In this document: positions 1 to 55,441 of the stretch, piece after piece
Layout of the letters: each line of letters begins with the position of its first letter
Position numbering within the stretch: the first letter of the stretch is position 1
From: Planctomycetota bacterium
GTDB taxonomy: Bacteria > Planctomycetota > B15-G4
DNA length: 64,000 nt
Assembly (NCBI GenBank): GCA_029259745.1
Contig: JAJDEO010000002.1
Location: 53,787 to 117,786, forward strand
Direction: 5' to 3'
Program-made: the position numbers and the translations under genes
Notes under the pieces: model-generated
The model's input: the letters and a program-made list of their open reading frames with translations, nothing else
What the model was told of the DNA's origin: nothing
Database searches by the model: none

Positions 1-2
1 CG

Positions 3-1019
3 CGGTTCAGCGCACCGTTCCTGTGGTCCGAGTGGTCGACGGTTGTCGATGCTTGGCAGGTCGACAACTGGGAGGAGTACCGAACCGTCAAGAGGCTTGG
101 ACGCAAGACCCGCCTGGCTGAGTCCCAGCGGCGCGAGTTGTGGGCCGTGTTCGATGCGGTCCGTGCGAGGCTCGCCGATCAGGGGCGTGTGACGATGGCC
201 GGTGTGCACCGGGCCGTGGCGCAGGCGATCACCGACAGCGGTGCGCGGCCCTACGACTTCGCGATCGTCGACGAGGCGCAGGACGTGAGCGTCCCGCAGC
301 TTCGCTTCCTCGCGGCGCTCGGCGCGGCACGCCCTGATGGGCTCTTCTTCGCTGGCGATCTCGGTCAGCGCATCTTCCGTCAGCCCTTCTCGTGGTCGTC
401 GCTCGGCGTGGAGATCCGCGGGCGGTCGTCGATCCTCCGCGTCAACTACCGAACGTCCCACCAGATCCGCACTGCGGCCGACAGGTTGCTTGCGCTCGAA
501 CTCGCCGACGTCGACGGCAACAAGGAGGACCGTCGCGGAACCGTGTCCGTCTTCAACGGACCGGTACCGGAGATCCAGCTCTTCGACTCAGCATCGGACG
601 AGAGCGAGTTCGTCGGCGAGCGCCTGGCCGCGTGGATGGCCGACGGCATGGCTGCGCACGAGATGGCCGTGTTCGTGCGCAGCGATGCGCAGCTCGCAAG
701 AGCCGAAGAAGCACTCCGCAAGGCAGGCGTCGACTACCGAGTTGTCGGACCCCGCATGGACACGACCCACGGCAAGGCCTCCCTGACGACGATGCACCGC
801 GCCAAGGGCCTCGAGTTCCGCGCCGTAGCCGTCATGGCCTGCGACGACGAGGTCGTGCCGCTCCAAGATCGCATCGAAACCGTCACCGACGACTCCGACC
901 TCGAAGAGGTCTACAACACCGAGCGGCACCTGCTCTACGTCGCCTGCACCCGCGCGAGAGATCATCTGCTGGTGACGGCGGTGGAGCCGGGTTCGGAGTT
1001 TTTGGAGGACATGGCGTGA
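3..1019 (+). CDS. UvrD-like superfamily 1 DNA helicase, C-terminal part (5' end truncated by window start)
   Basis: The reading frame is open from base 3 into the track ORF 138..1019. SF1 helicase motifs are visible: DEAQD (II), GDLGQRIF (III), VNYRTSHQI (IV), TTMHRAKGLEF (V) and LLYVACTRAR (VI). Confidence 0.75.
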   Translation, partial: RFSAPFLWSEWSTVVDAWQVDNWEEYRTVKRLGRKTRLAESQRRELWAVFDAVRARLADQGRVTMAGVHRAVAQAITDSGARPYDFAIVDEAQDVSVPQLRFLAALGAARPDGLFFAGDLGQRIFRQPFSWSSLGVEIRGRSSILRVNYRTSHQIRTAADRLLALELADVDGNKEDRRGTVSVFNGPVPEIQLFDSASDESEFVGERLAAWMADGMAAHEMAVFVRSDAQLARAEEALRKAGVDYRVVGPRMDTTHGKASLTTMHRAKGLEFRAVAVMACDDEVVPLQDRIETVTDDSDLEEVYNTERHLLYVACTRARDHLLVTAVEPGSEFLEDMA

Positions 1020-1056
1020 GGGCGGTGGGTGGCCCGGGGCGTCGGAGGCTGCGAAC

Positions 1057-2628
1057 ATGACAATCTTTGATCGGCTGAAGGCGTTTCTGTCGGGAGGCGC
1101 GCGACCGACATTCGGGGAACTGCACGCAAAAGCAATACGTACACCCGATGAGCCCGCTGGCGAGCAGGATCCGCCCAATCGGTCGCCCGTCGAGGCGGTC
1201 AAGCCAACGCGCGAGTTCGAACTCGTCCGGGATCTACTCAAGGAGGGGTGTGCTCCGTTCGTCCTCGTGATTGGTCAGGCCGGCACCGGGAAGACCACAT
1301 GCATTAACTGGCTTCGCGAGCAGGTCGACGGAAACGTCGTCGTCGTTGCTTTCACGGGGCTCGCAGCCCTGACAGCGGGCGGCCAGACGATCCACTCGTT
1401 CTTCAGGTTCCCGCCGAAGTGGCTCGGTCCGCGTGACATCGAGCTGCATCTTGATCCAGCGATCTACCAGGAGCTCGACGTCCTCGTCATCGACGAGATC
1501 TCGATGGTGCGCGTCGACCTGCTCGATGCCATCGATCGCTTCTTGCGGCTCAACCGGAGTCAACGAAATCCTGCCAATGCGAATCGTCCGTTCGGCGGTG
1601 CGCAGATTGTAGCGTTCGGCGATCTATTCCAGCTTCCCCCGGTGGTGACGCGGGGCGATCAACGCCTGATGGAAAGGGCCGGTTATCTCAGCCAGCACTT
1701 CTTCAGTGCCGAGGCATTGCGCAACCTTGCGCCAGCGACCGTCGAGTTGACGCAGCCATTCCGTCAGCGTGACAGCGTATTTCTGGGGTTGCTTGGATGC
1801 ATACGCGAGGATCGAGACACAGAACGCGCTGTCGAGGAACTCAACGCGCGATGTGCTGAGAGCGGGGCATCGAATGCGGATATCTGGTTGACGGTGGTGC
1901 CGACGCGCGCGCGCGCTGAGCGCGTGAATTTCCGGCAGTTGGACGTGTTGCCAAGCGAGCCTCGCACCTATCAGGGGCAGATCCGCGGGCGGTTCATCTC
2001 GGGGCTGCGCGAGGGGGAGAAGCCCAATGACACGCAGGAAGAACGAAATCTTCCCGCGCCTTTCGAGCTTCAGCTGAAGCCTGGCGCGCGTGTCATCTTC
2101 ACGAAGAACGACGGCGGGCACCAATGGGTCAACGGCACGATGGGCACCGTTGTGGCGACAGAGCCGGAGCACGTCGTCGTCAGGGTTGACGCTGACGGGG
2201 AAGGCGAAGGCGACATCGTCCACGTCGGTCGATCGCGATGGACGAAGGACCGGTACCAGTATGATCGGCTGCTCGGCCGGATTACCCAGGAGGAGGTCGG
2301 GTCCTATTCGCAGATCCCTCTTGCGCCCGCCTGGGCCATCACGATTCATAAGGTCCAGGGCCAGACCCTCGACCGCATCTGCGTCGACCTCGACCGAGGC
2401 GCGTTCGCCACCGGCCAGACCTACGTTGCCATCAGCCGCTGTCGCTCCCTCGATGGGCTCCGCCTTGCACGCCCGATCACGCGTGAGGACGTTCTCTGTG
2501 ACCCACAGGTACGGCGCTTCATGGACAGCGTGCGTCCGTCATTGGCGAATCGACTACTTGTCGAGGAAGGATCGACTCAGGACGAACCGTACGGACCCGC
2601 CGGCGAGAACTATGGCGAACAACGCTGA
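1057..2628 (+). CDS. PIF1/RecD-like (AAA_30) SF1 helicase
   Basis: Walker A GQAGTGKT, PIF1-type GGQTIHSFF, motif II VLVIDEISMV, GDLFQLPPV and a C-terminal WAITIHKVQGQT..YVAISRCRS motif. It starts 37 bp after the previous stop on the same strand. Confidence 0.75.
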   Translation: MTIFDRLKAFLSGGARPTFGELHAKAIRTPDEPAGEQDPPNRSPVEAVKPTREFELVRDLLKEGCAPFVLVIGQAGTGKTTCINWLREQVDGNVVVVAFTGLAALTAGGQTIHSFFRFPPKWLGPRDIELHLDPAIYQELDVLVIDEISMVRVDLLDAIDRFLRLNRSQRNPANANRPFGGAQIVAFGDLFQLPPVVTRGDQRLMERAGYLSQHFFSAEALRNLAPATVELTQPFRQRDSVFLGLLGCIREDRDTERAVEELNARCAESGASNADIWLTVVPTRARAERVNFRQLDVLPSEPRTYQGQIRGRFISGLREGEKPNDTQEERNLPAPFELQLKPGARVIFTKNDGGHQWVNGTMGTVVATEPEHVVVRVDADGEGEGDIVHVGRSRWTKDRYQYDRLLGRITQEEVGSYSQIPLAPAWAITIHKVQGQTLDRICVDLDRGAFATGQTYVAISRCRSLDGLRLARPITREDVLCDPQVRRFMDSVRPSLANRLLVEEGSTQDEPYGPAGENYGEQR

Positions 2629-2679
2629 CCGTCTTCTCGTCTGATATCCTCCCGCCGATAACCTCTGGGGAGAGCCGCC

Positions 2680-3879
2680 TTGCCGTCATCGTTCACGTGG
2701 CTCGACGCCAGCGAGGTGGATCGGCGTCGGGCGCTCGACGTGATCGACTTGTTCAGCGTGCGGGACACGCGCGACCAGCTCGGACTCGCCGGCATTCGCG
2801 ATGCATGGGCGGACCGGCTCGCGCCGGGGACGAGCACGGTTCAGACGCGGGCGCGGTACTTCCTGTTCGTGCCGTGGATGTACCGGGCGCTGGCTGCTTC
2901 CAGCGTGCGCGCGGATCGAGTTGAAGCGCGAGCGAAACGCTTCGAGCTCGGACTCATCAAGGCGATCCGAGCGTCGGATCCTTCGGACGGGCTCATCGGT
3001 GCGCAGGCCGGTCGGGGGCTGCAGCGACTGCCAAGTGACATCTACTGGGGTGGGCTTGGGGCGTGGAAGGTCAGACTGTTCATCGGGGCGCGGACCCGCT
3101 ACCACCGCGCTCTCGGGCAGGAACGCGTCGATTCTGTCTTCCTGACCGACGGCGGCGTCGCAGCCGACTGGAACCCACACCTTCCCGCTCCACCGGACGA
3201 CTTCCCTGACGTTGCCACGCTCGACCTGCGGCGCATCGACGCGGAGTTTCTCCGTGAGCAAATCGTGCAGCATGCGCGCGGGTCCTGGATCGCGCACCTC
3301 GTCATGTCCAACGAGGTCTGGGACACCGTCCCGGCGCTCTGGGATCACCCTGCGACGTCCTCCGCCCCTGCGGCACTGGCGCGGGACATTGAGCACGTGC
3401 GTTTGTTCAGTCTCTCGATGCACGGCGCAGCATTGGTGTACGGCCGGATGCTGTCGGAGCAACTTGGGCGCGCTGACTGGATCGTCGACTGGGGCAAGCG
3501 CTTCGATGCGTGGGTCGAACGAACGCGCGCGTCCGCCGACAGCCTGCAGCACTGGGACACCGACGACTTTTGGAACCGCACACGTCTTCTGAATCCGCGC
3601 ATCCCGAGGAACAGTCGGCAGTTCGCGAGTCGTTGGATCGACGGACTCCGGGTGCGCCTCCGCGCCGGATTGCTTGCCGACCTCGCCGACGATGCTGAGG
3701 TCCGTCGCGACATCACCGCACGCGAGAGGTTCCTCAAGCGACACCGCGCACGGCTCACGCATCGTGAGCACCTGCAGCGCTGGAGCGGCGCCTCGGGTGC
3801 CGACGCGTTCGACTTCCGCTGGCCGGTCACGCAGCGGCTCGTGCGCGACATTCAACTTGGTCTTCGGAGGGATGACTGA
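2680..3879 (+). CDS. Hypothetical protein (399 aa), first gene of a three-gene DUF/PLD/SNF2 operon
   Basis: Long ORF with no recognisable catalytic motif. It starts 51 bp after the PIF1-like stop, and its TGA stop lies 2 nt before the GTG start of the next gene, which is preceded by GGAGG. Confidence 0.6.
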   Translation: MPSSFTWLDASEVDRRRALDVIDLFSVRDTRDQLGLAGIRDAWADRLAPGTSTVQTRARYFLFVPWMYRALAASSVRADRVEARAKRFELGLIKAIRASDPSDGLIGAQAGRGLQRLPSDIYWGGLGAWKVRLFIGARTRYHRALGQERVDSVFLTDGGVAADWNPHLPAPPDDFPDVATLDLRRIDAEFLREQIVQHARGSWIAHLVMSNEVWDTVPALWDHPATSSAPAALARDIEHVRLFSLSMHGAALVYGRMLSEQLGRADWIVDWGKRFDAWVERTRASADSLQHWDTDDFWNRTRLLNPRIPRNSRQFASRWIDGLRVRLRAGLLADLADDAEVRRDITARERFLKRHRARLTHREHLQRWSGASGADAFDFRWPVTQRLVRDIQLGLRRDD

Positions 3880-3881
3880 AG

Positions 3882-5768
3882 GTGCTGACGCCGCGCGACC
3901 GCACCCTGCTCCTCGAGGCGTTACACACGCCCGACGGCTTCCGGCTTGACCAAGCCGTCGGCACGACCTTCACGCTCGACCTGATGGCGCTTCTCACCGT
4001 GCCTTTGGCGTTTACCTTCGCGCACTGGGATGACGACGAAGGCCGGCCGACGCTCGACCCCGTCGCGCTGATCCACGCGCTCCGTGAGCACGCACGTCGC
4101 ATGCACATCTTCTGCCAGGCAGGGGAGATCCGCGCGCCTGGTGCGGGCCAACCATTGTTCACCGCCCTTGAGCCGTCGGTGATCGAGGCGCGCGCGCCGA
4201 AGCCCGGCGGTCTCTTCCACCCGAAGGCCTGGGTCCTGCGCTTCACGAACGCCGACGGCGATGTCATGTATCGCGTGCTCGTCGCCAGCCGCAACCTGAC
4301 CTTCGACCGCTCGTGGGACACGCTGCTCGTGCTCGAAGGATCATTGACTGGCCGCAGCCGCAACGTTCGTGACAGCGTTCCACTCGGTGACTTTGTTGCG
4401 GCGCTCCCCGACCTCGCACTGCGGCGCGTGCCGCAGCAAACGCGTCAAGCGATCCTCGATATGGCCGGCGAGCTACGCCGCGTTCGGTTCGACCCGCCCG
4501 AGCCGTTCAAGGAGCTGCACTTCCATCCCTTCGGCGTCGCTGGCCGCGCGAAGCACTGGCCATACGAAGGCGCATTCAAGGGGGTGGTCGTCTCGCCGTT
4601 TGTCGGCGACGAGATGCTCGCCGACCTCCTCGATACGTGCGAGGACTGGAACCGTCGCGAGGTTGACCTGCAGCTCATCTCGCGGCCTGAGTCTCTGGTC
4701 GGATTGTCGCGCGAAGTCGTCGAGCGCTTCTCCAGCTGCTGGATGCTGTCGGCCGATGCCGACCCCGAGGATGGTGTCGAGGAGTCAGAGGGTGGGGAGG
4801 CCTTCACTACCGACGACGCCCTCACGGGGCTGCATGCCAAACTTGTCGTACTGCACCGTGACCACTACGCGCATGTGTTCACTGGGTCGGCGAACGCGAC
4901 GGTGGCAGCTCATCAGCTCAATGTCGAGTTCATGGTCGAACTTGTCGGTGGTCGCGAAAAATGTGGTCTGCCCGCGTTGATGGGAAGCGATGGCGACGAG
5001 GGCAAGGGCACGCTGCGTGAGTTGCTTGAGCCGTGGGAGCCCGTCGACACCGAGCCGGACGCCGAGCAGGAGCTGATCAACGACCTCGACCGGCGACTCG
5101 CGAGAGCGCGCCTTGCCGTCGGCACGTGCGACCTCATACTCAACGTCGCGCCGACATCGGCCGACGATCGAGGCGACGTCACTTACGACGTTGACGTCAC
5201 CGGCGCGATGCCGGAGATGCCCGCTGGCGTGCGCGTCGTATGTTGGCTGGCAACGCAGGTCGTTCACTGCGCTGTGGAGCCCGCGAAGGGAGACACCGAG
5301 CACGTTGCGCGCTTCACGGACATCGCGTTGATTGATCTCACGGCGTTCCTCGCCTTTGAATGCGTCGCGAGTGAAGGCGGCGTTGAGCGGCGTTCGCGGT
5401 TCGCGCGACACCTGCCCCTGGTTGGCGCGCCCGACGACCGCGAAGAACGTCTCCTGCGCGCCATGCTCAACGATCGCGAGAAGGTCATGCAGCTCCTTCT
5501 GATGCTGCTTGCTGCCGACGACACCGGAGCGCCTCCGCCGGGTTTGGCGGACGGTGCGGGCCTCTGGAGCCGCTGGGGCGGGCCCGATGGCGTGCCACTG
5601 CTCGAGTCGCTCGTCGGTGCCCTCGCGCGCGACCCGTTGAGCCTCGAGCCAGTGCGCCGGCTCGTCGACGACTTGCGGCGGACCGAGGAGGGCGCCGAGC
5701 TGCTTCCCGACGGCTTCGGCGCGATCTGGGCGGGGGTTGAGGCCGCTGCCGGGGAGCTGCGCAAGTGA
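3882..5768 (+). CDS. PLD-like (phospholipase D / nuclease superfamily) protein with two degenerate HKD-type motifs
   Basis: First motif GGLFHPKAWVLRF...VLVASRNLT (HxK then S-x-N). Second motif LHAKLVVLHRDHYAHVFTGSANAT (HxK then GSxN). Both aspartates are replaced. 628 aa with a GTG start. Confidence 0.65.
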   Translation: MLTPRDRTLLLEALHTPDGFRLDQAVGTTFTLDLMALLTVPLAFTFAHWDDDEGRPTLDPVALIHALREHARRMHIFCQAGEIRAPGAGQPLFTALEPSVIEARAPKPGGLFHPKAWVLRFTNADGDVMYRVLVASRNLTFDRSWDTLLVLEGSLTGRSRNVRDSVPLGDFVAALPDLALRRVPQQTRQAILDMAGELRRVRFDPPEPFKELHFHPFGVAGRAKHWPYEGAFKGVVVSPFVGDEMLADLLDTCEDWNRREVDLQLISRPESLVGLSREVVERFSSCWMLSADADPEDGVEESEGGEAFTTDDALTGLHAKLVVLHRDHYAHVFTGSANATVAAHQLNVEFMVELVGGREKCGLPALMGSDGDEGKGTLRELLEPWEPVDTEPDAEQELINDLDRRLARARLAVGTCDLILNVAPTSADDRGDVTYDVDVTGAMPEMPAGVRVVCWLATQVVHCAVEPAKGDTEHVARFTDIALIDLTAFLAFECVASEGGVERRSRFARHLPLVGAPDDREERLLRAMLNDREKVMQLLLMLLAADDTGAPPPGLADGAGLWSRWGGPDGVPLLESLVGALARDPLSLEPVRRLVDDLRRTEEGAELLPDGFGAIWAGVEAAAGELRK

Positions 5769-8700
5769 GCCGCGATGACATGGAACATCCGAGCGCCGAG
5801 CCCACGCTCGCGCGCCTGAAGGGCTTCCAAAGGGCCGCAGTCGAGACGGCGTTCGAGCGGCTTTACACGGCGCCTGACTCGACGCGGCGCTTCCTCGTGG
5901 CAGACGAAGTCGGACTCGGCAAGACGCTCATTGCTCGCGGCATCATCGCCAAGGCCGTCGAACACCTTTGGAACGACGTCGAGCGCATCGACGTCGTCTA
6001 CCTCTGCTCCAACGCCAGAATCGCGAAGCAGAACATCCGCCGGCTCAACCCCTTCCCAGGCCTCTCCATTGCTGAGGCCGACCGCATCACGATGCTCCCG
6101 GTGAAGCTTGGGGCACTCGCCCACGATCGGCTGAACTTCGTGGCGTTCACGCCGGGCACGTCGCTAGATCTGAAGTCGAGCGAGGGACAGCGGCGCGAAC
6201 GTGCGCTTTTGTTCTGGTTGCTGCATGGCCATTGGCACCACGGTGATAACGGCGCAAGAAACCTTCTCGACGGTGCGGTCAAGCGTCGCGATCGCTGGCA
6301 TCAACTCGTGGACGACTTCCCGGCTACGAACCACATCGCGCCGAAGGTCCAGCGGCGCATCTTAGAGGCCCTTGAGAGTGCGGGCGCTTCAGGGACGACG
6401 ACGGGCAAGGGTGGGTTACGAGTTCGCTTCCAGGCTCTGTGCGCGCGGTTCGAGCGTGCGCGGCCGCCGTGGTCGGGTGTCTTACGCGAGGAACAACGCG
6501 AGCTTGTCGGCGAGCTGCGCACGCACGTCGCGAGGGCCTGCATCGACCTGCTCGAGCCTGACCTCGTCATCCTCGACGAGTTTCAGCGCTTCAATGACCT
6601 GCTCGACCCGCGCACCGACAGTGAAGCCGCCCAACTTGCACGACGCCTCTTCGAGTGGAGCGACGAGTCAGCCGAGGCGCGCGTGCTCTTGCTCTCGGCC
6701 ACGCCGTACAAGATGTACACGCTCACTCACGAGGCCGATGAAGACGACCACTACGCCGACTTCCTACGCACGGTCGACTTCCTCGAGCCGGACCACACGC
6801 GCCAAGCACAGCTCCGCCGACACCTCGGTGACTACCGGCGCGAGCTCTACAGCCTCGGAGCGGGCGGCGGCGAGCGTCTGCACGAGGTCAAGGCATCGAT
6901 TGAGCTGGCGTTGCGGCGCGTGATTTCGCGGACAGAGCGGCTCGGAGCCGGTGGCGCGCGCGACGGGATGCTGAAGGCCGTGTCGGTTCCGGGCGTGGCG
7001 CTCGAACCGCGCGACGTGCTCGACTTCGTCTACTTGCAGCGCATCGCCGATTGTCTCGAGCAGCGCAGCGTCGTCGAGTACTGGAAGTCGGCCCCGTACC
7101 TGCTGAACTTCATGGAGGATTACGGGCTCAAGCGCCAGCTCGAAGCCGAGCTGACGCGCCGTCGCCCCGATGCTGAACTTGTCGAGTGTCTTGCTGCCGC
7201 CGATGGCCTGCTGCTCGATGCACGTGGTCTGCGCGACTACGAAGCCGTCGCCCCGGCAAACGGGCGTCTTCGTGCGCTGGCCGACGACCTCTTCAAGAGC
7301 GGGTTGTGGCGCTGTCTTTGGCTGCCCCCGTCGCGACCAAACTATGCGCTCGGCGGTCCCTTCGCCGAGGCCTCGTCGCACTCAGCGGGCACGACGAAGC
7401 GGCTCGTCTTCTCGGCGTGGACCGTCGTGCCGAAGGTCATTGCGGCGTTGCTTAGTTATGAACTCGAACGCCGTAGCTTCCACGCCTTCGGCGGCGAGGT
7501 TGAGAACACGTCGGAGGCTCGCAAGAAGCGCGCGCCGCTGCTCCGGTTCGCGCGCAGCGAAGGACGGCTTTCCGGCATGCCGGTGCTGGCGTTGGCGTAT
7601 CCGTCGCCGGCCCTCGCGCGTCTCGGCGATCCGCTGGACGTCGCAGGCCGATTTGGAGAGAACACCGCGCAGGACGACCTCGTTGACGTTGTCGCCGCGC
7701 GCATCGAGACAGACCTCGCACCGATCCTCGCGCAGCATGCGAGCGAGCAGGGCGGCCCGGATGACGATTCGTGGTACTGGCAGGCACCTATCTTGCTCGA
7801 CCGCGCTGCTGACAAAGCAGGCACCGAAGCCTGGTGGTCGGAGGACGCGCTCGCGGCGCGCTGGACGGCGGCCGGTGACGACGATGGCGACGGAGGCCGT
7901 CTATGGACGGAGCACGTCGAGGAAGGCGTACGTGTCGCGCTGGGGGACCACACGCGCCTCGGTCGGCCACCCGCCGACCTGGTGACGACCCTTGCTCGCT
8001 TGGCGATCGCGGGGCCGGCCGTCTGTGCCCTACGCTCCTTCGAGCGCGTCCTCGACACCAGCGACGAGGATGCAGTGCGGGTCCGCCTCGCAGCCGGCCG
8101 GATCGGCTTCGCGTTCCGCTCGCTGTTCAACCGCCCCGAAGCGATGGCATTGCTCCGTGCAGGTCGCCGCGATACGCCGTACTGGCGACTCGTGCTCGGG
8201 CACGGCCTGGACGGCGACATCGACGCTGTACTCACCGAGCACATCCACGTCCTCCGCGATCTTCAGGGCTTGTTCGACGCTCTGCCGGGCGACGCGGCCG
8301 AGCGGCTCGCGAGAGTCGTTGAGGAGACCCTGTCGATCCGCGCCTCGTCCCAGCCATACGACGTGGTCCAGGCGTTGGGGGATGATGGTCAGGTCGAGCT
8401 GAACAAGAACGTTCGCAACCTGCGCGGCCACGTGGCGATGCGCTTCAGCACCGACAAGAGTGAGGACGAGGCCGGCGGTGTCCGCGCCGACACGGTTCGT
8501 GACGCGTTCAACTCACCCTTCTGGCCGTTCGTGCTGACGACGACCTCGGTAGGGCAGGAGGGCCTCGACTTCCACGCATGGTGCCACGCGGTCGTCCACT
8601 GGAATCTCCCGTCGAACCCAGTTGATCTCGAGCAGCGCGAGGGCCGCATACACCGCTTCAAGGGGCACGCCATCCGCAAGAACGTGGCGCGACGTCATGG

Positions 8701-9031
8701 CGCCGCACTCAACATCAAGGCGGGCGAGGATCCATGGTCGCTCATGTTCGACCAGGCCGTTGCGGATGTGGCCGATGACGCGCGCGGTCTCGTTCCATGG
8801 TGGGTCTATCCGCTTGAGGGCGGAGCGTCCATCGAGCGCCACGTGCCGATGCTTCCGCTGTCGAGGGAGCAGAGCAAGCTCGAGGCGCTCCGTAAGTCGC
8901 TCGCGGTGTACCGCATGGTGTTCGGACAGCCGCGGCAGGACGACCTCTTGGCTTACCTGATGGAGCACGTGTCACGCGAGGATATCGAGCAAAAGATGGC
9001 CGGGATGCGGATGGACTTGTCGCCGAGGTAG
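5765..9031 (+). CDS. SNF2/DExH-family SF2 helicase (1088 aa)
   Basis: Motif I VADEVGLGKTLIARG, motif II VILDEFQRF, motif III LLLSATPYKM and a C-terminal helicase core TTTSVGQEGLDFHAW...QREGRIHRFKGH. Its start overlaps the PLD gene stop (GTGA). Confidence 0.8.
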   Translation: MSRDDMEHPSAEPTLARLKGFQRAAVETAFERLYTAPDSTRRFLVADEVGLGKTLIARGIIAKAVEHLWNDVERIDVVYLCSNARIAKQNIRRLNPFPGLSIAEADRITMLPVKLGALAHDRLNFVAFTPGTSLDLKSSEGQRRERALLFWLLHGHWHHGDNGARNLLDGAVKRRDRWHQLVDDFPATNHIAPKVQRRILEALESAGASGTTTGKGGLRVRFQALCARFERARPPWSGVLREEQRELVGELRTHVARACIDLLEPDLVILDEFQRFNDLLDPRTDSEAAQLARRLFEWSDESAEARVLLLSATPYKMYTLTHEADEDDHYADFLRTVDFLEPDHTRQAQLRRHLGDYRRELYSLGAGGGERLHEVKASIELALRRVISRTERLGAGGARDGMLKAVSVPGVALEPRDVLDFVYLQRIADCLEQRSVVEYWKSAPYLLNFMEDYGLKRQLEAELTRRRPDAELVECLAAADGLLLDARGLRDYEAVAPANGRLRALADDLFKSGLWRCLWLPPSRPNYALGGPFAEASSHSAGTTKRLVFSAWTVVPKVIAALLSYELERRSFHAFGGEVENTSEARKKRAPLLRFARSEGRLSGMPVLALAYPSPALARLGDPLDVAGRFGENTAQDDLVDVVAARIETDLAPILAQHASEQGGPDDDSWYWQAPILLDRAADKAGTEAWWSEDALAARWTAAGDDDGDGGRLWTEHVEEGVRVALGDHTRLGRPPADLVTTLARLAIAGPAVCALRSFERVLDTSDEDAVRVRLAAGRIGFAFRSLFNRPEAMALLRAGRRDTPYWRLVLGHGLDGDIDAVLTEHIHVLRDLQGLFDALPGDAAERLARVVEETLSIRASSQPYDVVQALGDDGQVELNKNVRNLRGHVAMRFSTDKSEDEAGGVRADTVRDAFNSPFWPFVLTTTSVGQEGLDFHAWCHAVVHWNLPSNPVDLEQREGRIHRFKGHAIRKNVARRHGAALNIKAGEDPWSLMFDQAVADVADDARGLVPWWVYPLEGGASIERHVPMLPLSREQSKLEALRKSLAVYRMVFGQPRQDDLLAYLMEHVSREDIEQKMAGMRMDLSPR

Positions 9032-9035
9032 CGCC

Positions 9036-9056
9036 AGTCAGCGTCAGTCGCTGACT
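9036..9056 (+). terminator. Candidate stem-loop terminator after the SNF2 gene
   Basis: Inverted repeat AGTCAGCG-tcagt-CGCTGACT lies 5 nt after the TAG stop. There is no T-tract, which is usual for high-GC genomes. Confidence 0.3.
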
Positions 9057-9421
9057 TGCATGGAACAGTCCTGCGATCGGGAATCATCTGACGTGCGCAA
9101 TCGCGCACATCCGCTTGGCGTTCCCCTGTCACCGGGCATCCGGCCAGGCCTCCGAATCATCTCCCAGCACTGGATGGTCGACCCTACGGGCCCGCCAGGC
9201 TTCGCGGCGTCGAACGCGGTACGCGCGACGATTGACTAGGGCTGTCGCTGGCGGCGGTGCAGGTCTCTTCCCCGTCGTCGGGACGTCGTAGTTCGCAGGG
9301 ATGACGCAACGCACGGTCCTCGATCGACCACATCGAACCCCGGGCGACTACCGTCTCCGCTATCTATCAAGCAGCCCGGACGGCCCCTGCGTCTCGCGCC
9401 TGGAACTTTCGCTCAACCTTC

Positions 9422-9802
9422 GTGCGATTCGATCCCGATGAGTTGAGGATTGATGTCAAAACCTCTTCGAGAGTTGGCCGAGTGACTACAGCGACAATAG
9501 TTGAGACGCGTGAGTGTGATTTCTGCGGTGAAGACGTGCTTGTGAAGGCAAAGAAGTGCAAGCACTGCCACGAGACACTTGATCCGGCAATGCGCAAGGC
9601 TGAAGAGGCTATGCGCGTTTCGACAGCCGGAAGTGGCAGCGCCTCCTCGGCAGCGTCCGCAACCGTGGTCGTTGCAGGTCCGGACACTCGGCCTAACTTC
9701 CCCCACGTGTTTCACTTTCTCATGACGGTCGTCACCGTCGGATTCTGGGGGTTCGTCTGGGTGCTGCATTACTGCTGTCGTGGCGAGACTTACAAGAACT
9801 AG
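9422..9802 (+). CDS. Small zinc-ribbon membrane protein (CxxC...CxxC plus C-terminal TM helix)
   Basis: CDFCGED..CKHC zinc-ribbon pattern and hydrophobic tail FHFLMTVVTVGFWGFVWVL. Codon usage is visibly lower-GC than the flanks (aca, ata, gtt, gat, aag). The true start is uncertain (ATG 9422 or a downstream GTG). Confidence 0.45.
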   Translation: MRFDPDELRIDVKTSSRVGRVTTATIVETRECDFCGEDVLVKAKKCKHCHETLDPAMRKAEEAMRVSTAGSGSASSAASATVVVAGPDTRPNFPHVFHFLMTVVTVGFWGFVWVLHYCCRGETYKN

Positions 9803-9880
9803 TCGGCTATCTCACCTCGCGAGTGCCGCACGACGGCCTGCCCGGGCGGCCGAGTCGCCATCTGTCCCCTCAGGGCGAAG

Positions 9881-9957
9881 TGGTCGGGGTGACTGGATTC
9901 GAACCAGCGACCTTCTGCTCCCAAAGCAGACGCTCTACCAAACTGAGCCACACCCCG
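9881..9957 (-). tRNA. tRNA-Pro (anticodon TGG) with encoded CCA
   Basis: Hand-folded cloverleaf: acceptor CGGGGTG/CACCCCG, D-stem GCTC/GAGC, anticodon stem TCTGC/GCAGA with loop TTTGGGA, T-arm GCTGG-TTCGAAT-CCAGT, discriminator A, then CCA. Confidence 0.85.
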
Positions 9958-9988
9958 ACGGTGTGGGGGCATTGTAGGGGGCGGGGCG

Positions 9989-11467
9989 GTGGAGGCAATC
10001 GTCTCAAGGGGTGGGGCGTCGGGGGCCGACCGGGATGGGATGGAACTCTCGCGCGATGGGCTGCTGAGGTGGGTGGGGCTGCGTCTCGGCGCGGGGGTTC
10101 TGCTCGGTGGGGTGTGCGGGTGTTCGGAGCCTGCGCCTGCGCCGGTGCGTGCGGGGCCGGCGCAGCATCTGTTGCTCGTTGTCGTCGACACGCTGCGGGC
10201 CGATCACGTGGGCGTGCTCGGGGCGGCGCGGGACACGACGCCGCAGCTCGACGCGCTCGCGGAGCGCGGCGTCGTCTTCTCCCAGGCCATCGCGCCGTCG
10301 CCGTGGACGCGGCCCTCGATGGGGACGCTCATGACGGGCCGTCTTCCGCTCGCGCTGGGACTCACGGATCACAACTTCCGCAACCCGCAGACCGACGGGG
10401 ACGTGCTGCCGCAGTCGGCGCTGACGCTCGCCGAGGTCCTCGGCTCGGCCGACTTCGCCACGAGCGGCGTCGTCGCGAACATCAACGTCGAACCCGTCTT
10501 CGGTTTCGACCAGGGCTTCGCCGACTACGTCTCCGTGCCCGCCGAGATGGCCTCCGACCCGGCCTGGCGCGAGCGCAACGACTGGCTCCGCGACACGTCG
10601 TCACGCGTCACGACCCGCGCGCGCGACTGGCTCGCCGACTTCGCCGCCACGAACAGCGTCGACGACCGCGCCTTCCTCTACGTGCACTACCTCGACCCCC
10701 ACGATCCCTACACGCCCGCAGCAAAGTTCGACGCGCTGTTCGACGCCGATCGCTCGTCCGGCAATCCGTGGGCCGAGGACGAGCGCCTCTACGACGCCGA
10801 GATTCGTCAGATCGACGCCGAGGTCGGACGCCTGCTCGACGGGCTCGACGACGCCGGGATCGCCGACGACACCCTCGTCGTCATCGTCTCCGACCACGGT
10901 GAAGAGTTCGGAGACCACGGCGGCACGCGTCATGGCCACAGCGTCTACGACGAACTTCTGCGCGTGCCGTGGATCATGGCCGGCCCCGGCGTCGCGCGCG
11001 AACGACGTCGCGATCAGGTGGGGCTCATCGACGTCATGCCCACCGTCCTCGACGCGCTCGACATCGCGGCGCCGACGGGTCTGCGCGGTACTTCACAACT
11101 CGCCCTGACGCCGACGACCCGCGCCACGCGCAGCTCGGTCAGCGCGGAGCACGCGTCGGCAGCGGTGTTCAGTGAGTCGGCCTACGTCCCGCTCAACGCT
11201 CTGCGCGCACCACCCTGGAAGCTCATCGTCGACACGGAGACGAACGCAGCGTCGCTCTTCAACCTCGCGCGCGATCCCCGCGAACACGACGACGTCGCGG
11301 CGCACCATCCGCACGTCGTGCAGCGCTTGCTCGAACGCTGGCGAGACGAGCGCGCAACATCCGAGCGCAACCGTCTCCCGAGCGACGCGACCAGCACGGG
11401 CCTCTCATCGGCCCAGCGCGAACAGCTCGAAGCGCTCGGCTACATCGGCGACGACCACGCGCGCTGA
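9989..11467 (+). CDS. Sulfatase-like hydrolase (alkaline-phosphatase superfamily), probable lipoprotein
   Basis: LLLVVVDTLRADHVG metal-binding motif and SPWTRPSMGTLMTGR (variant C/S-x-P-x-R region). Signal/lipobox LLGGVCGCS. The start could be the internal ATG near 10037. Confidence 0.65.
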   Translation: MEAIVSRGGASGADRDGMELSRDGLLRWVGLRLGAGVLLGGVCGCSEPAPAPVRAGPAQHLLLVVVDTLRADHVGVLGAARDTTPQLDALAERGVVFSQAIAPSPWTRPSMGTLMTGRLPLALGLTDHNFRNPQTDGDVLPQSALTLAEVLGSADFATSGVVANINVEPVFGFDQGFADYVSVPAEMASDPAWRERNDWLRDTSSRVTTRARDWLADFAATNSVDDRAFLYVHYLDPHDPYTPAAKFDALFDADRSSGNPWAEDERLYDAEIRQIDAEVGRLLDGLDDAGIADDTLVVIVSDHGEEFGDHGGTRHGHSVYDELLRVPWIMAGPGVARERRRDQVGLIDVMPTVLDALDIAAPTGLRGTSQLALTPTTRATRSSVSAEHASAAVFSESAYVPLNALRAPPWKLIVDTETNAASLFNLARDPREHDDVAAHHPHVVQRLLERWRDERATSERNRLPSDATSTGLSSAQREQLEALGYIGDDHAR

Positions 11468-43165: not shown

Positions 43166-44557
43166 GTGATCGCGAGTCCTCCGACGATCGGTCCGACCAT
43201 GGCCACACTCTCTCTTCTCGCCGCCGCCTCGTGCGCGGCGATGCTCGCCGTCAGTTGCGCGACGCCCGCAGATCCGCCGCCGCGCGCGCAGTCGTTCGAG
43301 GCGCGTGCGCTGCCGGCCGCGCCTGTTGCGCGCTCGACGCGCGCCTCGTCACAGGCCGCCATCACGTTCCCTGGCGGCGACCTCACCGACATGCTGCGCT
43401 TCGCGCTCGAACACAATCCCGAGATGCGCGCGGCCCACGCGCATTGGAGCGCGCTCGCCGAGCGCATCGAGCAGGCCGAGACGCTGCCCGATCCCACCGT
43501 GACGTTCGGCGAGTTCCTCGAAGAACTCGAGACGCGCGCGGGGCCGCAGCGCCGGCGGCTCGGGTTGTCGCAATCATTCCCCTGGCCGGGCACGTTGGCT
43601 GCGCGTGCGCGTGTCGCCGAGCGACGGGCCCACGCGGCCTGGTACGCCCTCGACGCCAAGCGGCTCGCCATCGTCGAAGACGTCACGCGCGCGTATCACG
43701 AGTACGCCTTCGGTGGGCGCGAGCTCGAGATCCGGCGCGAGTTGCTCGAGCTGCTCAGCGGGCTCGAACCGCTCGTGCAGGGGCGCGTGCGGACCGGCGG
43801 TCCCCAGGCGCAGCTGTTGCGGTTGCAGGTCGAGATCGGCGCGCTCGAGGATGTGGTCGCCAGCGTCGACGCGCGGTTGCCGGTGCTCGCCGCGCGCCTG
43901 GCGGATGCGCTCGGTGTTCCGAGCTCCGCGGGGCTGCTCGACCCGCCGAAGCTCGCTGTCCCGAGTGACATCGTCGTCGACCTGGAGGCACTTCGCGCCC
44001 GACTGCACGATCGCAACCCGGCGCTGCACGCCCTCGACGCGGAGTGGAGCGCTGCGCGCGCCGCCGAGGAGCTCGCAGACCTGCGCGGCTCACCCAACTT
44101 CACCGTCGGCGTCGACTATCTCGACACCGGCGCGGCGATCAACCCCGGGACGCCGGACAGCGGTGACGACCCGCTGCTCCTCAGGGTCGGCATGACGATT
44201 CCGATCTGGCGTTCGAGCGTTGCGGCGGGGCGGCGTGAGGCGCGGCTGTCGAGCGCGGCGGCCCACGAACGCGTCGCGGACGCCGAGTCGCGCCTCGCCA
44301 CCGAACTCGCCGCTGCGGCCTTCGCTGTCGAGGATGCGCTGCGACGCGTGGAGCTCTATCGCGGCGCGCTCGTTCCGCGGGCCCGCTCGTCGCTGTCACT
44401 CACGGCGGCGTCGTATCGCGCGGGCACGTCCACTGTCGTCGATCTGCTGGACGCCGAGCGCGTCGTTCTCGAGTTCGAACTCTCGTCGTGGCGCGCCTGC
44501 CGCGATGCCTTCGTCGGCGCGGCGCGCCTGACGACTCTCACCGGAGGTGAGCCATGA
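43166..44557 (+). CDS. Outer-membrane efflux protein (TolC/CzcC/CusC family)
   Basis: OEP-family repeats and an N-terminal signal. First gene of the OMF-MFP-RND operon. Confidence 0.7.
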   Translation: MIASPPTIGPTMATLSLLAAASCAAMLAVSCATPADPPPRAQSFEARALPAAPVARSTRASSQAAITFPGGDLTDMLRFALEHNPEMRAAHAHWSALAERIEQAETLPDPTVTFGEFLEELETRAGPQRRRLGLSQSFPWPGTLAARARVAERRAHAAWYALDAKRLAIVEDVTRAYHEYAFGGRELEIRRELLELLSGLEPLVQGRVRTGGPQAQLLRLQVEIGALEDVVASVDARLPVLAARLADALGVPSSAGLLDPPKLAVPSDIVVDLEALRARLHDRNPALHALDAEWSAARAAEELADLRGSPNFTVGVDYLDTGAAINPGTPDSGDDPLLLRVGMTIPIWRSSVAAGRREARLSSAAAHERVADAESRLATELAAAAFAVEDALRRVELYRGALVPRARSSLSLTAASYRAGTSTVVDLLDAERVVLEFELSSWRACRDAFVGAARLTTLTGGEP

Positions 44558-46953
44558 CCGCCCGCCTGCTACTCGCCGTCTTTGCGACGGCGCTCATCGC
44601 CTTTGCCATCGGTCGCATCTCGGCACCTGATCCCGCGCGAGGAGCGCCGGCGAGCGTCGATGAACACGCGGGTCACGACCACGCGGCCATCGAAGCTGGC
44701 GCAGATTCCGTGGCGACGCTCTGGACCTGTCCGATGCACCCGCAGATCCAACTTCCCGAGTTCGGCGACTGTCCGATCTGCGGCATGGACCTCGTGCCGC
44801 GCGCGGCCGGCGGCGACGATGACCCGCGGCGCCTTGCCATGTCACCGGCCGCCATCGCCTTGGCAGGAATCATCAGCGAGCCGGCGCGTCGCCGCAACGT
44901 CACGCGTCCGGTGCGCATGGTCGGCAAGATCGACTACGACGAAACCGCCGTGCGCACGATCTCGGCCTGGGTCGCCGGTCGCCTCGAGCGGCTGTTCGTC
45001 GACGCGCAGGGCGTCCCCGTGGCACGCGGTGACCACCTCGTTTCGATCTACAGCCCCGACTTGCTGCTCGCGCAGGATGAACTCCTCGTGGCAAAGCGCG
45101 AACTGGCCGGCATCACGTCGGCGACGTCGGAGTTCCTCGCCGAGTCGACGCGCGGAGGGTACCGCGCGGCCCGCGACAAGCTCCTGCTCTTCGGCCTCAG
45201 TGCGGGGCAGGTCGACGAACTCGAGCGTCGCAGCGTGGCCGACGATCACGTGCTCATCAACTCGCCCTCGTCCGGCGTCGTCATCGACAAGCTTGTCGAC
45301 GAAGGTGCCTACGTGCGGGTGGGCGAGCCGATCTATCGCATCGCCGACCTCTCGCGCCTCTGGGTGTTGCTCGACGCCTATGAGCAAGACCTCCCGTGGG
45401 TGCGCTACGGTCAACCGGTGCGGCTCGAGGTCGAGGCCATGCCGGGGCGCATCGTCGAAGGCACGGTGTCCTTCGTCGACCCCTTCATCGACGAGCACAC
45501 GCGCACGGCGAAGGTGCGCGTGCAGGTCGACAACTCCACCGGGTTGCTCAAGCCGGGGATGTTCGTGCACGGCGTCGTCCTCGCGCGGTTGGGTCCTGGC
45601 GGCGCGCTGATCGTCGACGACGTGGCGGGCAAGTGGGTCTCGCCGATGCACCCCGAGATCGTCAAGGACGGGCCGGGTGTATGTGATGTGTGCGGCATGG
45701 ACCTCGTGCCGGCCGAGGAACTCGGCCTCGTGTCCGAGCCGTCCGACGGCGAGCGCCCGCTCGTCGTGCCGCGCAGCGCGGTGCTCGTCACCGGAGTGCG
45801 CGCGATCGTCTATGTCGACGTGCCAGGCGCGGAGCGTCCGACGTACGAGGGACGCGAAGTCGTGCTCGGCCCGACGGCCGGTGACGACGTCATCATCATG
45901 GACGGACTCGAGGAGGGCGAGCGTGTCGTCGTCAACGGCGCCTTCCGCGTCGACAGTGCGATGCAGATCGTGGCCAAGCCGAGCATGATGTCGATGCCGG
46001 GCGAACGACGCGCGCCGAGTGGACCGCACGTCGCGGTGTTCGTCGAGTCGCTGGGAGCCGTGTACGACGCCGCGTTGGCGTTGCAGGTGGCGCTGGCGGG
46101 GGACGACGAGCTGGCCGCGCGTGCTGTCTTCGTCGAACTCGAGACGGTGCTCGATGCGCCGATCGCTTCGGGGCTCGCGGCCAGCGAGCGTATGATCTGG
46201 AGCGAAGAGCGCGCGCGTCTGGTGGGCGCAGTGCGCGAGGCCCGGCGCGCCGCAGACATCGGCGAGCTACGGGTCGCGTTCGAGCACGTCTCGTTGTCGG
46301 TGCTGACGCTGGCGCTCGAGTTCGGCCACGATCGCCCCGGCGTGCTCATCGAGGCGCACTGTCCGATGGCCTTCGATGATCGCGGCGCGAGCTGGCTCCA
46401 AGCCGGCAGCGAGATTCTCAACCCGTACTTCGGCGCCGCGATGTTGCGCTGCGGCGACGTGCGCACGCAGCTCGGTGATGTGTCACATGCGACTCCGACG
46501 GTCGAGGAACACGAGCACGCGGAGCCTGGCGCGCATGCGCCACACGGCCCGGCTTCCGAGCTCTTCGAGGCATATCTGGTCTTGCAGGAAGCGCTCGCTG
46601 CCGACGCTGCCGCGGTTGCCGAGCAAGCGGCAGAGGCGTTGCACGCGGCGGCCGAGGCCGCCGGTGCCGACGACGTCGCGTCCGTCCTCGCGCGGCGCGC
46701 TGAACGGTCCTCTGACATCCAAGGGCTGCGCGTGCTGTTCGCGCCGATCTCGGAAGCCATGATCGCGCGGGTCGGTCGCGCGGGGCAACCGCTGGGCGAG
46801 ACGTTGCACGTCGTTCACTGTCCGATGGCCTTTGACGATCAGGGCGCGAACTGGATCCAACGGGAGCGCACGGTCGCCAACCCGTACTTCGGCGCCTCGA
46901 TGTTGCGCTGCGGGCGGGTCACCGAAGATCTCGAGCCGGCGGGTGACCGATGA
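44554..46953 (+). CDS. RND efflux periplasmic adaptor (CusB/CzcB-like) with heavy-metal-binding and DUF3347-like repeats
   Basis: Two CPMHP..CP(I/V)CGMDLVP metal-binding modules, an HlyD-like core, and C-terminal tandem repeats HCPMAFDD(R/Q)GA(S/N)W(L/I)Q...NPYFGA(A/S)MLRCG. ATGA overlap with the upstream gene. Confidence 0.75.
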   Translation: MTARLLLAVFATALIAFAIGRISAPDPARGAPASVDEHAGHDHAAIEAGADSVATLWTCPMHPQIQLPEFGDCPICGMDLVPRAAGGDDDPRRLAMSPAAIALAGIISEPARRRNVTRPVRMVGKIDYDETAVRTISAWVAGRLERLFVDAQGVPVARGDHLVSIYSPDLLLAQDELLVAKRELAGITSATSEFLAESTRGGYRAARDKLLLFGLSAGQVDELERRSVADDHVLINSPSSGVVIDKLVDEGAYVRVGEPIYRIADLSRLWVLLDAYEQDLPWVRYGQPVRLEVEAMPGRIVEGTVSFVDPFIDEHTRTAKVRVQVDNSTGLLKPGMFVHGVVLARLGPGGALIVDDVAGKWVSPMHPEIVKDGPGVCDVCGMDLVPAEELGLVSEPSDGERPLVVPRSAVLVTGVRAIVYVDVPGAERPTYEGREVVLGPTAGDDVIIMDGLEEGERVVVNGAFRVDSAMQIVAKPSMMSMPGERRAPSGPHVAVFVESLGAVYDAALALQVALAGDDELAARAVFVELETVLDAPIASGLAASERMIWSEERARLVGAVREARRAADIGELRVAFEHVSLSVLTLALEFGHDRPGVLIEAHCPMAFDDRGASWLQAGSEILNPYFGAAMLRCGDVRTQLGDVSHATPTVEEHEHAEPGAHAPHGPASELFEAYLVLQEALAADAAAVAEQAAEALHAAAEAAGADDVASVLARRAERSSDIQGLRVLFAPISEAMIARVGRAGQPLGETLHVVHCPMAFDDQGANWIQRERTVANPYFGASMLRCGRVTEDLEPAGDR

Positions 46954-49900
46954 GTGACGATCGCTCGCCGATGACACGCGTCATCGGGTTCTTCCTCGGC
47001 AACCCGCTACTCGTCGCGCTCGCCACGGTGTTCGCGATCGGCTGGGGCGTGCTTGTTGCGCCGTTCGACTGGGACATCCCCGGCATCCCGCGCGACCCCG
47101 TGCCCGTCGACGCGATTCCCGACACAGGCGAGAACCAACAGATCGTCTTCACGGCGTGGCCGGGCCGCTCACCGCAAGACGTCGAAGATCAGATCTCGTA
47201 TCCGCTGACCGTCGCGCTGCTCGGCGTCCCCGGCGTCAAGAGCATCCGCAGCTCGTCGATGTTCGGCGTCTCGTCGGTGTTCGTGATCTTCGAAGACGAG
47301 ATCGAGTTCTATTGGTCGCGCAGTCGACTGCTCGAGAAGCTCGGAAGCCTGCCGCAGGGAACGCTTCCCGACGGCGTGCAGCCCGCTCTCGGGCCCGATG
47401 CGACGCCGCTCGGACAGGTCTTCTGGTACACGCTCGAAGGGCGTGACACCGACGGCAAGCCCACCGGCGGATGGGATCTGCACGAGCTGCGGTCGGCCCA
47501 GGACTGGCACGTCCGGTATGCACTTTCGAGCGTCGCCGGCGTGGCCGAGGTCGCGTCGATCGGTGGGTACGTGCAGGAGTATCAGATCGATGTCGACCCC
47601 GACGCGATGCGGGCGCATGGCGTGTCGCTCGAACGCGTCTTCGGGGCCGTGCGCAACTCGAACGTCGACGTCGGTGCGCGCACGATCGAGGTGAACCGGG
47701 CCGAGTACGTCGTGCGCGGGCTGGGCTTGATCGAGTCGCTGGAGGATCTCGAAGAGGTCGTCGTGGGAATGCGTGGCGACGTCCCGGTCACGGTGCGGCA
47801 GATCGCGAACGTCGCGCTCGGGCCGGCGCTGCGGCGCGGTGCGCTCGACAAGGGCGGGGCCGAGGCCGTGGGCGGCGTCGTCGTCGCGCGCCACGGCGCC
47901 AACCCCATGGCGACGATCGACGGCGTGAAGGCCAAGATCGCCGAGATCGCTCCGGGCCTGCCGTCCAAGGTGCTCGACGACGGCCGCGTCTCACGCGTCA
48001 CCGTCATTCCCTTCTACGATCGCTCGGGCCTCATCCGCGAGACGCTTGGCACGCTCAGCGATGCGCTCGAGCAGCAGATCCTCGTCACGATCCTCGTCGT
48101 GCTCGTGATGGTGGGGCACCTGCGCAGCGCCGTGCTCGTCTCGGGGCTGCTGCCGCTCGCCGTGCTCATCACGTTCATCATGATGAAGCACACGGGTGTC
48201 GACGCGAACGTCGTGGCGCTTTCCGGCATCGCCATCGCGATCGGCACGATGGTCGACGTCGGTATCGTGCTCACGGAGAGCATCCTGAACCACGTCGCGC
48301 CGGGACAAACCGTGCGCGAACGTCTCGATGCCGTGCGAACGGGCGCCGCCGAGGTGGGCAGCGCGGTGCTGACGGCCGTGCTGACGACCGTCATCAGCTT
48401 CCTGCCCGTCTTCACGATGGAAGGTGCCGAGGGCAAGCTCTTCGGCCCGCTGGCGGCCACGAAGACCTACGCGTTGATCGCGTCGATCTTCGTCGCGCTC
48501 GTCGTGATCCCGCCGGCGGCGTTGCTGATGCTCGGACGGGGACGCCGTGAGAACGATCGCAAGCCGGGTCTGCTCGGTGCGCTGCTCCTCGCGGCCACGG
48601 GCGCCCTCGCGTGGAATGTTCTCCACCCGGCACTCGGGGGCGCGCTCGTCGCCTACGCTGTCTGGCGCGTCATCGCTCCGCGCCTGCCCGCCATCGTGAT
48701 GCGCATTGCGTCGACGATTTTCGCGATCGTGGCCATCGCCGCCGTCGCGTGGTGGCTGGCTGAGCGTTGGGAGCCGCTCGGTCCTGGCAACGACACGCGC
48801 AACCTCATCTTCACGGTGACGACGATCGGCGGCGTGCTGCTCGCGTTCCGCCTGCTGGTGCTCGTGTACGTCCCGCTGCTTCGGATGTGTCTGCGCTTCA
48901 AGCTCACGTTCCTCATGCTGCCGACGCTCCTGATCGTCTTGGGGCTCTTCTCATGGCTCGGCTTCGCGCGCGTCGCGGGCCCACTCGCTCCGGCCGTCGC
49001 GCGTGTCTCGTCGTTCGTCTCCGAGGATGTCACGGCCAGTGATGTCGCACTTTCTCCGACATGGGTCTCGCTCGCTCACACCTTCCCGGGGCTCGGCAAA
49101 GAGTTCATGCCGTCGCTCGACGAGGGCTCGTTCCTGCTCATGCCGGTGACGATGGCCCACGCGTCGATCGGCGAGGCGTTCGACCTGCTCCAGCAGCAGG
49201 ACATGGCCATCCGCGCGATCCCGGAGGTCGACGAAGTCGTGGGCAAGATCGGGCGCGCCGAGACGGCCCTCGACCCGGCGCCGATCTCGATGGTCGAGAC
49301 GGTCATCACGTACCTGCCCGAGTTCGTGCTCGACGAGAATGGTCGTCCCCGACGCTTCGCCTACGACGACGAGCACGCGCGCTTCGTGCTCGACGACGAC
49401 GAACAGCTCGTGCCCGATGACGACGGGCGTCCCTTCCGGCAATGGCGCGATCACATCGAGTCGCCGTACGACATCTGGAAGCTGATCGAGAACGCCGCGG
49501 CCGTCCCCGGCATGACCACGGCCTCGATGCTCCAGCCCATCGAGACGCGGCGCATCATGCTGCAGACGGGCATGCGCGCCTCCATGGGCGTCAAGATCCG
49601 CGGCCCCGACCTTGAGAGCATCGAACGCGTCGCACTCGATTTCGAGCGCATGCTCAAGGACGTCCCGTCGATCCGCCCGGCCACCGTGCTCGCCGACCGC
49701 GTGATCGGCAAGCCGTACCTCGAGATCGACATCGACCGCCGCGCCATCGCGCGCTACGGCCTCTCGGTGCGCTCGGTGCAAGACGTCATCGAGGTGGCGA
49801 TCGGCGGCCGGCAGCTCACGACCACCGTGGAGGGCCGCGAGCGCTACCCCGTGCGCGTGCGCTACCAGCGCGAGCTGCGCGACGACATCGGCGACCTCGA

Positions 49901-50765: not shown

Positions 50766-50929
50766 CACCTTGCTCTCGCGGAGGGCGGATCCCAGTCGTG
50801 ACAGCCCGGCTGCAATGCCCGTGCGCAGGCGCGCCGCAGTCGACATTTCGTGATCGTCCGGCCGGCGCGAATGCAGTGCCCGGCATCGCAGTCACGCGCT
50901 CGTGACGATCGTCCACGACGAACCCGGCC

Positions 50930-53580: not shown

Positions 53581-53584
53581 CGGT

Positions 53585-55006: not shown

Positions 55007-55374
55007 GGATGACCCCCGTGCTCGTGACGGGCGCCCTCGTGACGGGGCTCCGCTGCACGCGGGGCTGCCGGATCATCTTCGTGGCTTTCCATCGTGCCCG
55101 CCGGTTCCATGCCGTCACCAGGCATCGTTGAGTGCTCGCTGGACTCACCGGAGGAGCCGAGCAGCGGGGGCGCGAGGTCGAACGGGCTCGGCGCATGCAG
55201 CGCTCCCCCGGTCGTGTTCGAGGCCAGCGCGGGATGGCCTTCGGGGACCTCGAACTCGTAGGTGCTCGCGCAGCCCGAAATGCTTGCGAGGGCAATCGCC
55301 GCGAACGCTTGCGCGGCGCGCCGACGAGCGGTTCGAGACGGCGTTCGCGGTTGCGAGCAGGCCTGGCATTCCAT
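55003..55374 (-). CDS. Met/His-rich periplasmic lipoprotein (putative copper-binding)
   Basis: Lipobox LASISGCAS with C-terminal HSTMPGDGMEPAGTMESHEDD...RHEGARHEHGGHP. ATGA overlap with the downstream OMF gene. Start refined inside track ORF 55003..55545. Confidence 0.5.
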   Translation of the reverse strand: MECQACSQPRTPSRTARRRAAQAFAAIALASISGCASTYEFEVPEGHPALASNTTGGALHAPSPFDLAPPLLGSSGESSEHSTMPGDGMEPAGTMESHEDDPAAPRAAEPRHEGARHEHGGHP

Positions 55375-55441
55375 GAGAGCTCCTGTGATACGCGCGAGAG
55401 GAGATGCTATACCCGGGTTGGGTATAACGTCTGGAGCCAAC

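Follow-up and report, generated by a model that had tools for sequence, protein, structure and literature searches.

A predicted Azaca (ZacABC) anti-phage operon beside a tRNA-Pro gene in a Planctomycetota genome

When three tightly packed genes pair a putative nuclease with a large helicase and a partner of obscure nature, are they a new anti-phage system or a copy of one that already has a name? The genes in question lie at positions 2680-9031 of a 64,000-nucleotide (nt) stretch of a Planctomycetota genome, here called the window, and a preliminary description made from the sequence had presented them as a candidate uncharacterised defence system whose layout could not be named with confidence. 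Its account of the gene positions and junctions was exact. A six-frame list of open reading frames (ORFs) gives three co-directional plus-strand genes at 2680-3879 (399 amino acids, TTG start), 3882-5768 (628 amino acids, GTG start) and 5765-9031 (1088 amino acids, GTG start), spaced by -4 to +2 nt and with the junctions that had been described. The layout does have a name: the genes are zacA, zacB and zacC, and profile matches and gene order make it very probable that the locus is an intact Azaca (ZacABC) anti-phage operon, plausibly set in a defence island at a tRNA-Pro gene.

The identification was provided by PADLOC, whose Azaca models match the three proteins nearly from end to end: ZacA against the first protein (1.8e-109, profile positions 1-395 of 396), ZacB against the middle one (1.5e-163, positions 1-584 of 586) and ZacC against the last (E = 0, 1124 bits, positions 5-1016 of 1019). 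The next-best PADLOC matches, to MkoB, DrmC, DrmD, DpdE and BrxH, were marginal or restricted to stretches of about 50 residues, and in NCBIfam, where no model for ZacA was found, the only matches were to DrmC, DpdE and DrmD, all of them marginal and far under the cut-offs. The first protein, previously thought to be without any recognisable motif, turned out to match Pfam DUF6361 (PF19888) over its full length (1.4e-50). In the literature Azaca is defined as a helicase, a phospholipase D (PLD) nuclease and a DUF6361 protein, and is credited there to Millman et al. 2022. The window holds each of these: a DUF6361 protein of about 400 residues, recognised by both Pfam and PADLOC; a PLD-superfamily nuclease with its catalytic HxK residues; and a helicase recognised by PADLOC, whose GLGKT, DEFQ and motifs III, V and VI do not depart from the consensus of the family. 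They are contiguous and co-directional in the order A-B-C, as in the relatives. Because near-end-to-end Zac matches and the layout of the published definition coincide, we read the triad as Azaca. The operon is an ordinary representative of a system that already has a name and experimental validation, and not a new one. The claim of novelty fails because annotation models for a known system already exist and match the triad, an outcome that the preliminary description had itself listed as fatal to the idea, although its hedge that the genes might belong to a less-studied described family was well placed, Azaca being just such a family. A standard defence-system annotator using the PADLOC models would label the locus Azaca automatically, and the result is of use for annotation, adding to a Planctomycetota genome a predicted Azaca operon, intact and lying in a probable defence island beside tRNA-Pro.

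Does the triad travel as a unit? A scan of one genome per species yielded at least 586 stretches encoding ZacA relatives, of which the best 80 loci were kept. The hosts in the scan were Bacillota, Chloroflexota, Acidobacteriota, Planctomycetota, Verrucomicrobiota, Pseudomonadota, Gemmatimonadota, Actinomycetota, Cyanobacteria, Myxococcota and Methanotrichaceae archaea. The synteny check that had been suggested earlier was made by tblastn of the window ZacB and ZacC against the 80 kept loci, with identities of 31-50%, and its result favours a single conserved module: zacB lay immediately 3' of zacA in 79 of the 80, the lone miss being a contig that ended 92 nt past zacA, and zacC came next in all 71 loci that reached beyond zacB, the nine misses again being contig ends. 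In the three nearest relatives the triad was kept together with a 4-nt overlap of zacB and zacC, while the genes upstream were entirely different.

ZacA was also found on 43 plasmid records, and on a Cronobacter plasmid the triad adjoins a tyrosine recombinase; a search of phages for ZacA gave one weak partial match only. In RefSeq the triad is labelled 'DUF6361 family protein / phospholipase D family protein / helicase-related protein'. The occurrence on plasmids and the defence-gene neighbours support a mobile or accessory character for Azaca. One genomic survey has Azaca enriched in Actinobacteria. Two neighbourhoods may be recorded in passing. Immediately 5' of the closest Azaca relative, positions 1-4692 of locus L082 hold a DISARM-like set (a large gene of helicase size, an MZB/DUF1998 gene and a PLDc_2 gene), and at 8810-11071 of locus L084 a SNF2-rel_dom helicase lies 3' of a close Azaca relative.

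The last protein of the triad had been described as a SNF2/DExH helicase with motifs I-VI, and this held in part. Its membership of helicase superfamily 2 (SF2) and its motifs were borne out, with motif I DEVGLGKT at residues 47-54 (the Walker A GLGKT being residues 50-54), motif II DEFQ at 271, motif III SATP at 311, motif V TSVGQEG at 927 and motif VI QREGRIHR at 957, all five intact. Motif II, however, is DExQ and not DExH, and the likeness to SNF2 comes down to partial DrmD, DpdE, BrxH and RapA matches across the C-terminal lobe; Pfam SNF2-rel_dom did not match ZacC, and neither did any entry in a sequence search of the PDB. ZacA likewise found no match in the PDB, by sequence or by profile, and its confidently predicted fold has no solved structural relative. 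Its homologues number in the hundreds, all of them full-length DUF6361 proteins of about 400 residues, the nearest in the protein collection being 58% identical. By homology ZacA would be an obligatory third subunit, needed for DNA cleavage as in the characterised homologue.

What such an operon does is known from characterised homologues, and the earlier supposition of anti-phage defence was sound, in that the triad is Azaca and a homologue protects against T4. A Bacillus Azaca protects against T4 by a factor of more than 10^6 and is selective for T-even phages, and the purified Bacillus ZacABC proteins preferentially degrade T4 double-stranded DNA, from about 10 nM protein, in a reaction that requires all three subunits; protection and cleavage have been shown for the Bacillus (Bm) and 'Kp' operons (bioRxiv 10.1101/2025.07.10.664194). 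In the same study, mutants of the PLD active site and of the ZacC Walker A motif were dead, mutation of conserved ZacA residues had no effect, the consensus at the cut sites was highly degenerate (A|NT), and the authors considered glucosyl-hydroxymethylcytosine in T4 DNA to be a possible recognition cue (bioRxiv 10.1101/2025.07.10.664194). If the window copy works in the same way, its three proteins, made from one coupled transcript, would form a complex in which ZacC, as an SF2 ATPase/helicase, spends ATP on DNA and drives or licenses ZacB, the PLD nuclease, which would cut double-stranded phage DNA at highly degenerate sites, with ZacA as an essential subunit. Should the modification prove to be the cue, Azaca would act as a multi-subunit, modification-dependent (Type IV-like) restriction system. 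For the window copy we infer complex formation, ATP dependence, DNA target and phage specificity alike from these homologues.

It is ZacB that carries the sole local peculiarity of the window Azaca, namely that a small subclade has His or Gln where PLD motif 2 is normally acidic. In its model a bilobed PLD core (approximately residues 1-390), with two HxK...SxN half-sites, precedes a beta-sandwich and a C-terminal region made of helices; the fold is related to those of Tdp1, PLD4, SauUSI, Nuc and BfiI, Tdp1 being the best structural match. A PDB sequence search with ZacB alone returned only a spurious ryanodine-receptor match. Among the candidates scored, at least 5620 relatives were found at E <= 1e-10, and the few that are informatively named are called 'phospholipase D family protein'. 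The two PLD-like motifs with a replaced Asp, as the preliminary description had them, were readily confirmed: motif 1 reads H113-P-K115-AWVL-R120 ... S136-R-N138 and motif 2 reads H318-A-K320-LVVL-H325 ... G335-S-A-N338, with Arg120 and His325 at the canonical Asp positions. Across an alignment of 72 ZacB sequences, neither half-site shows any variation at H, K or N. At motif 1 the Asp position is Arg in 67 of the 72, so that its loss is a family trait. Motif 2 has the canonical form HxK(x)4[D/E] in 68 of the 72, with His in the window copy alone, and in the three nearest relatives, 52-58% identical, the position of residue 325 is occupied by His twice and by Gln once. Because the swap is common to these three, it marks a small subclade in which it is conserved, and does not reflect decay. 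In that subclade the acidic residue is missing from both half-sites (Arg in one; His or Gln in the other).

This analysis establishes that the proteins belong to the Azaca families, that their catalytic motifs are intact, that ZacB has a PLD fold and that the gene order is conserved. Several points have to be weighed against the conclusion that the operon is an ordinary working Azaca. Identity to the 80 genome loci is only about 31-50%, and at most 58% for ZacA and 68% for ZacB in the protein collection; the link to the tested Bacillus and 'Kp' proteins runs by way of the PADLOC profiles; and the His at PLD motif 2, where nearly all the aligned sequences have D or E, could mean that the activity or specificity of the window copy is different. 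To our knowledge, phages hypermodified in the manner of the T-even group are not known for planctomycetes, and recognition of modified DNA is suggested as a proposal of the preprint and not as a demonstrated mechanism. A more novel reading is that the ZacB subclade without acidic residues, which shares the lack of Asp with Tdp1, has a chemistry or substrate altered from that of characterised Azaca, perhaps with ZacA as the sensor. The change could be to another DNA modification as cue, or to the processing of protein-DNA or other phosphodiester adducts. The positive support for this is the conserved substitution alone, and we regard it as improbable. For researchers of Azaca, the locus and its relatives offer the strict A-B-C order, which extends to some archaea, a ZacA fold without a solved relative, and the motif 2 subclade; the role of ZacA and the recognition of phage DNA are no more testable in the window copy than in copies already studied.

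Could the operon be larger than three genes? Upstream, in window 1-2628 together with Logan contig L001 1-3928, the order is the C-terminus of a methyltransferase, a UvrD-like helicase gene, a PIF1/RecD-like helicase gene and zacA, all co-directional. The methyltransferase fragment before the UvrD-like gene is Type III-like, matching the C-terminus of PADLOC MTase_III at 4e-45; the UvrD-like protein has 690 amino acids, of which the N-terminal 230 or so are without assignment; and the PIF1/RecD-like protein (window 1057-2628, plus strand) has 523. The gaps are short, 37 nt separating the two helicase genes and 51 nt the PIF1-like gene from zacA, and a consensus scan found no sigma-70-like promoter before zacA, in 2300-2700. 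All of this would suit a larger, unnamed system of which the triad is a part. That reading is nevertheless very unlikely: a counterpart of the PIF1-like gene stood beside zacA in none of the 80 loci and one of the UvrD-like gene in a single locus (L031), the closest relatives have upstream genes of an entirely different kind, and Bacillus ZacABC suffices on its own for defence and cleavage (bioRxiv 10.1101/2025.07.10.664194). On synteny across the 80 loci, the upstream helicases were rejected as components of Azaca, and the weight that had earlier been placed on neighbouring helicases as support for a defence role was greater than they can bear, as neither the UvrD-like nor the PIF1-like gene is a conserved neighbour of Azaca elsewhere. 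The methyltransferase, UvrD-like and PIF1-like genes may instead be a separate defence module, and a defence-island setting for the triad is plausible.

A further reading makes the triad a degenerate or inactivated remnant of Azaca, the canonical Asp being missing from both PLD motifs. The Arg and His at the HxK(x)4D position would agree with inactivation, as would the Pfam PLDc_2 match of ZacB, which falls under its cut-off. We give this a chance slightly smaller again than that of a larger system. The motif 1 Arg is the norm of the family, the His or Gln of motif 2 is common to the three nearest relatives at 52-58% identity and so conserved under selection, the three ORFs are full length against their profiles, and the H, K and N residues and the helicase motifs are intact. 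Moreover, Tdp1, a PLD-superfamily enzyme that is active, has HKN motifs likewise without Asp, though it differs from ZacB in having only 13-15% sequence identity to it, no helicase or DUF6361 partners and another biological role. The missing Asp was accordingly rejected as a sign of inactivation, as the substitutions are conserved across the family (motif 1) or the subclade (motif 2).

How, then, does the window Azaca compare with the systems it might be taken for? With the tested Azaca operons it shares DUF6361, the PLD nuclease and the SF2 helicase, in the same order and with the same tight coupling, with catalytic H, K and N residues and Walker A and B intact; it differs in its origin, the tested operons being from Bacilli and Proteobacteria and this one from Planctomycetota, and in the second HxK(x)4[D/E], where it and its nearest relatives have His or Gln in place of the acidic residue. 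DISARM (the PLD protein DrmC with the SNF2-like helicase DrmD) and Mokosh (the PLD protein MkoB) resemble it in joining a PLD-like nuclease to a large helicase in a defence context, and give weak local profile matches. That the triad is neither, as the preliminary description had concluded, is upheld. DUF1998/DrmB, DrmA and the methyltransferase of DISARM lie outside the conserved module of Azaca, the genes upstream of the triad being UvrD-like and PIF1-like rather than DUF1998, and the DrmC and DrmD matches were marginal or local. For Mokosh only MkoB matched, against ZacB (3.3e-4, 18 bits), and no PADLOC match to an Mko helicase was found. Mokosh helicases belong to superfamily 1, whereas those of Azaca belong to SF2 (bioRxiv 10.1101/2025.07.10.664194). 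The SauUSI-type Type IV enzymes (PDB 7clg) are closer in spirit, combining a PLD-family nuclease with an SF2 ATPase/helicase, and both the profile and the model of ZacB detect the SauUSI nuclease domain. SauUSI targets modified cytosine, and characterised Azaca prefers hypermodified T4 DNA, though for Azaca a dependence on modification is so far a proposal; SauUSI combines everything, a recognition domain included, in one polypeptide, while Azaca has three proteins including DUF6361. In function Azaca would resemble a Type IV-like restriction system of the SauUSI kind divided among several proteins, while standing outside that family. To assign the triad to DISARM or Mokosh as a variant, or to see in it a single-system relative of the SauUSI-type enzymes, is the least likely reading of all and hardly credible, for beyond the shared pairing of nuclease and helicase the matches are more than 100 orders of magnitude weaker than those to Zac and cover short stretches only, neither of the two upstream genes is DUF1998/MZB and the conserved module is A-B-C alone, and SauUSI is a single polypeptide that lacks a DUF6361 partner.

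The junctions of the Azaca operon can be read directly from the sequence. The TGA of zacA (3877-3879) is followed by 'ag' and then by the GTG of zacB at 3882, and the TGA of zacB (5766-5768) overlaps the GTG at 5765 as GTGA. Purine runs of the GGAG type, resembling Shine-Dalgarno sequences, stand 7, 11 and 8 nt before the zacA, zacB and zacC starts, respectively, the first being GGGGAGAG (2667..2674, plus strand), before the zacA TTG and inside the 51-nt gap behind the PIF1-like gene. The start of zacC is ambiguous. A public protein collection holds the product from ATG 5780 (1083 amino acids), which would leave an 11-nt gap between zacB and zacC rather than an overlap; the collection has no entry for the GTG 5765 product. 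We favour GTG 5765 on sequence grounds, because gene calls in the three closest relatives overlap zacB and zacC by 4 nt and give a ZacC N-terminus as long as that of the GTG-5765 product, and because a GGGGAG run lies 8 nt before this codon. The close packing of the genes holds with either start. Beginning 5 nt past the zacC stop, a plus-strand hairpin, AGTCAGCG-tcagt-CGCTGACT (9036..9056), was read from the sequence; a terminator scan reported none after zacC, being silent on this hairpin because it lacks a T run, and on such slight evidence it could possibly be a terminator stem without a T tract.

The tRNA to which the preliminary description had drawn attention is indeed present: Rfam, in which it was the sole match, places tRNA-Pro(UGG) at 9881-9957 on the minus strand, 850 nt past zacC and with its 3' end toward the operon. 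No attachment-site-like second copy of the 3' end of tRNA-Pro was found within the window, and the left end of the island lies beyond the window start. On the far side of the tRNA are the housekeeping genes for a sulfatase, DinB, LexA, HflX and SecDF. Named relatives of the HflX protein, at 60-67% identity, come almost exclusively from Planctomycetota metagenome-assembled genomes. Between zacC and tRNA-Pro, a plus-strand ORF at 9422-9802 encodes a CxxC...CxxC segment resembling a zinc ribbon and a hydrophobic C-terminal stretch, with no Pfam match. Farther along, a minus-strand ORF of 451 amino acids (32560-33915) has the N-terminal pore-forming domain of delta-endotoxins (Pfam Endotoxin_N, 4.8e-17), which is unexpected for Planctomycetota, and a copper/heavy-metal resistance cluster at 44554-58080 includes a CusB-like protein with HMBD domains, a pump of the CusA/AcrB family, a multicopper oxidase and a P-type ATPase with YHS and HMBD domains.

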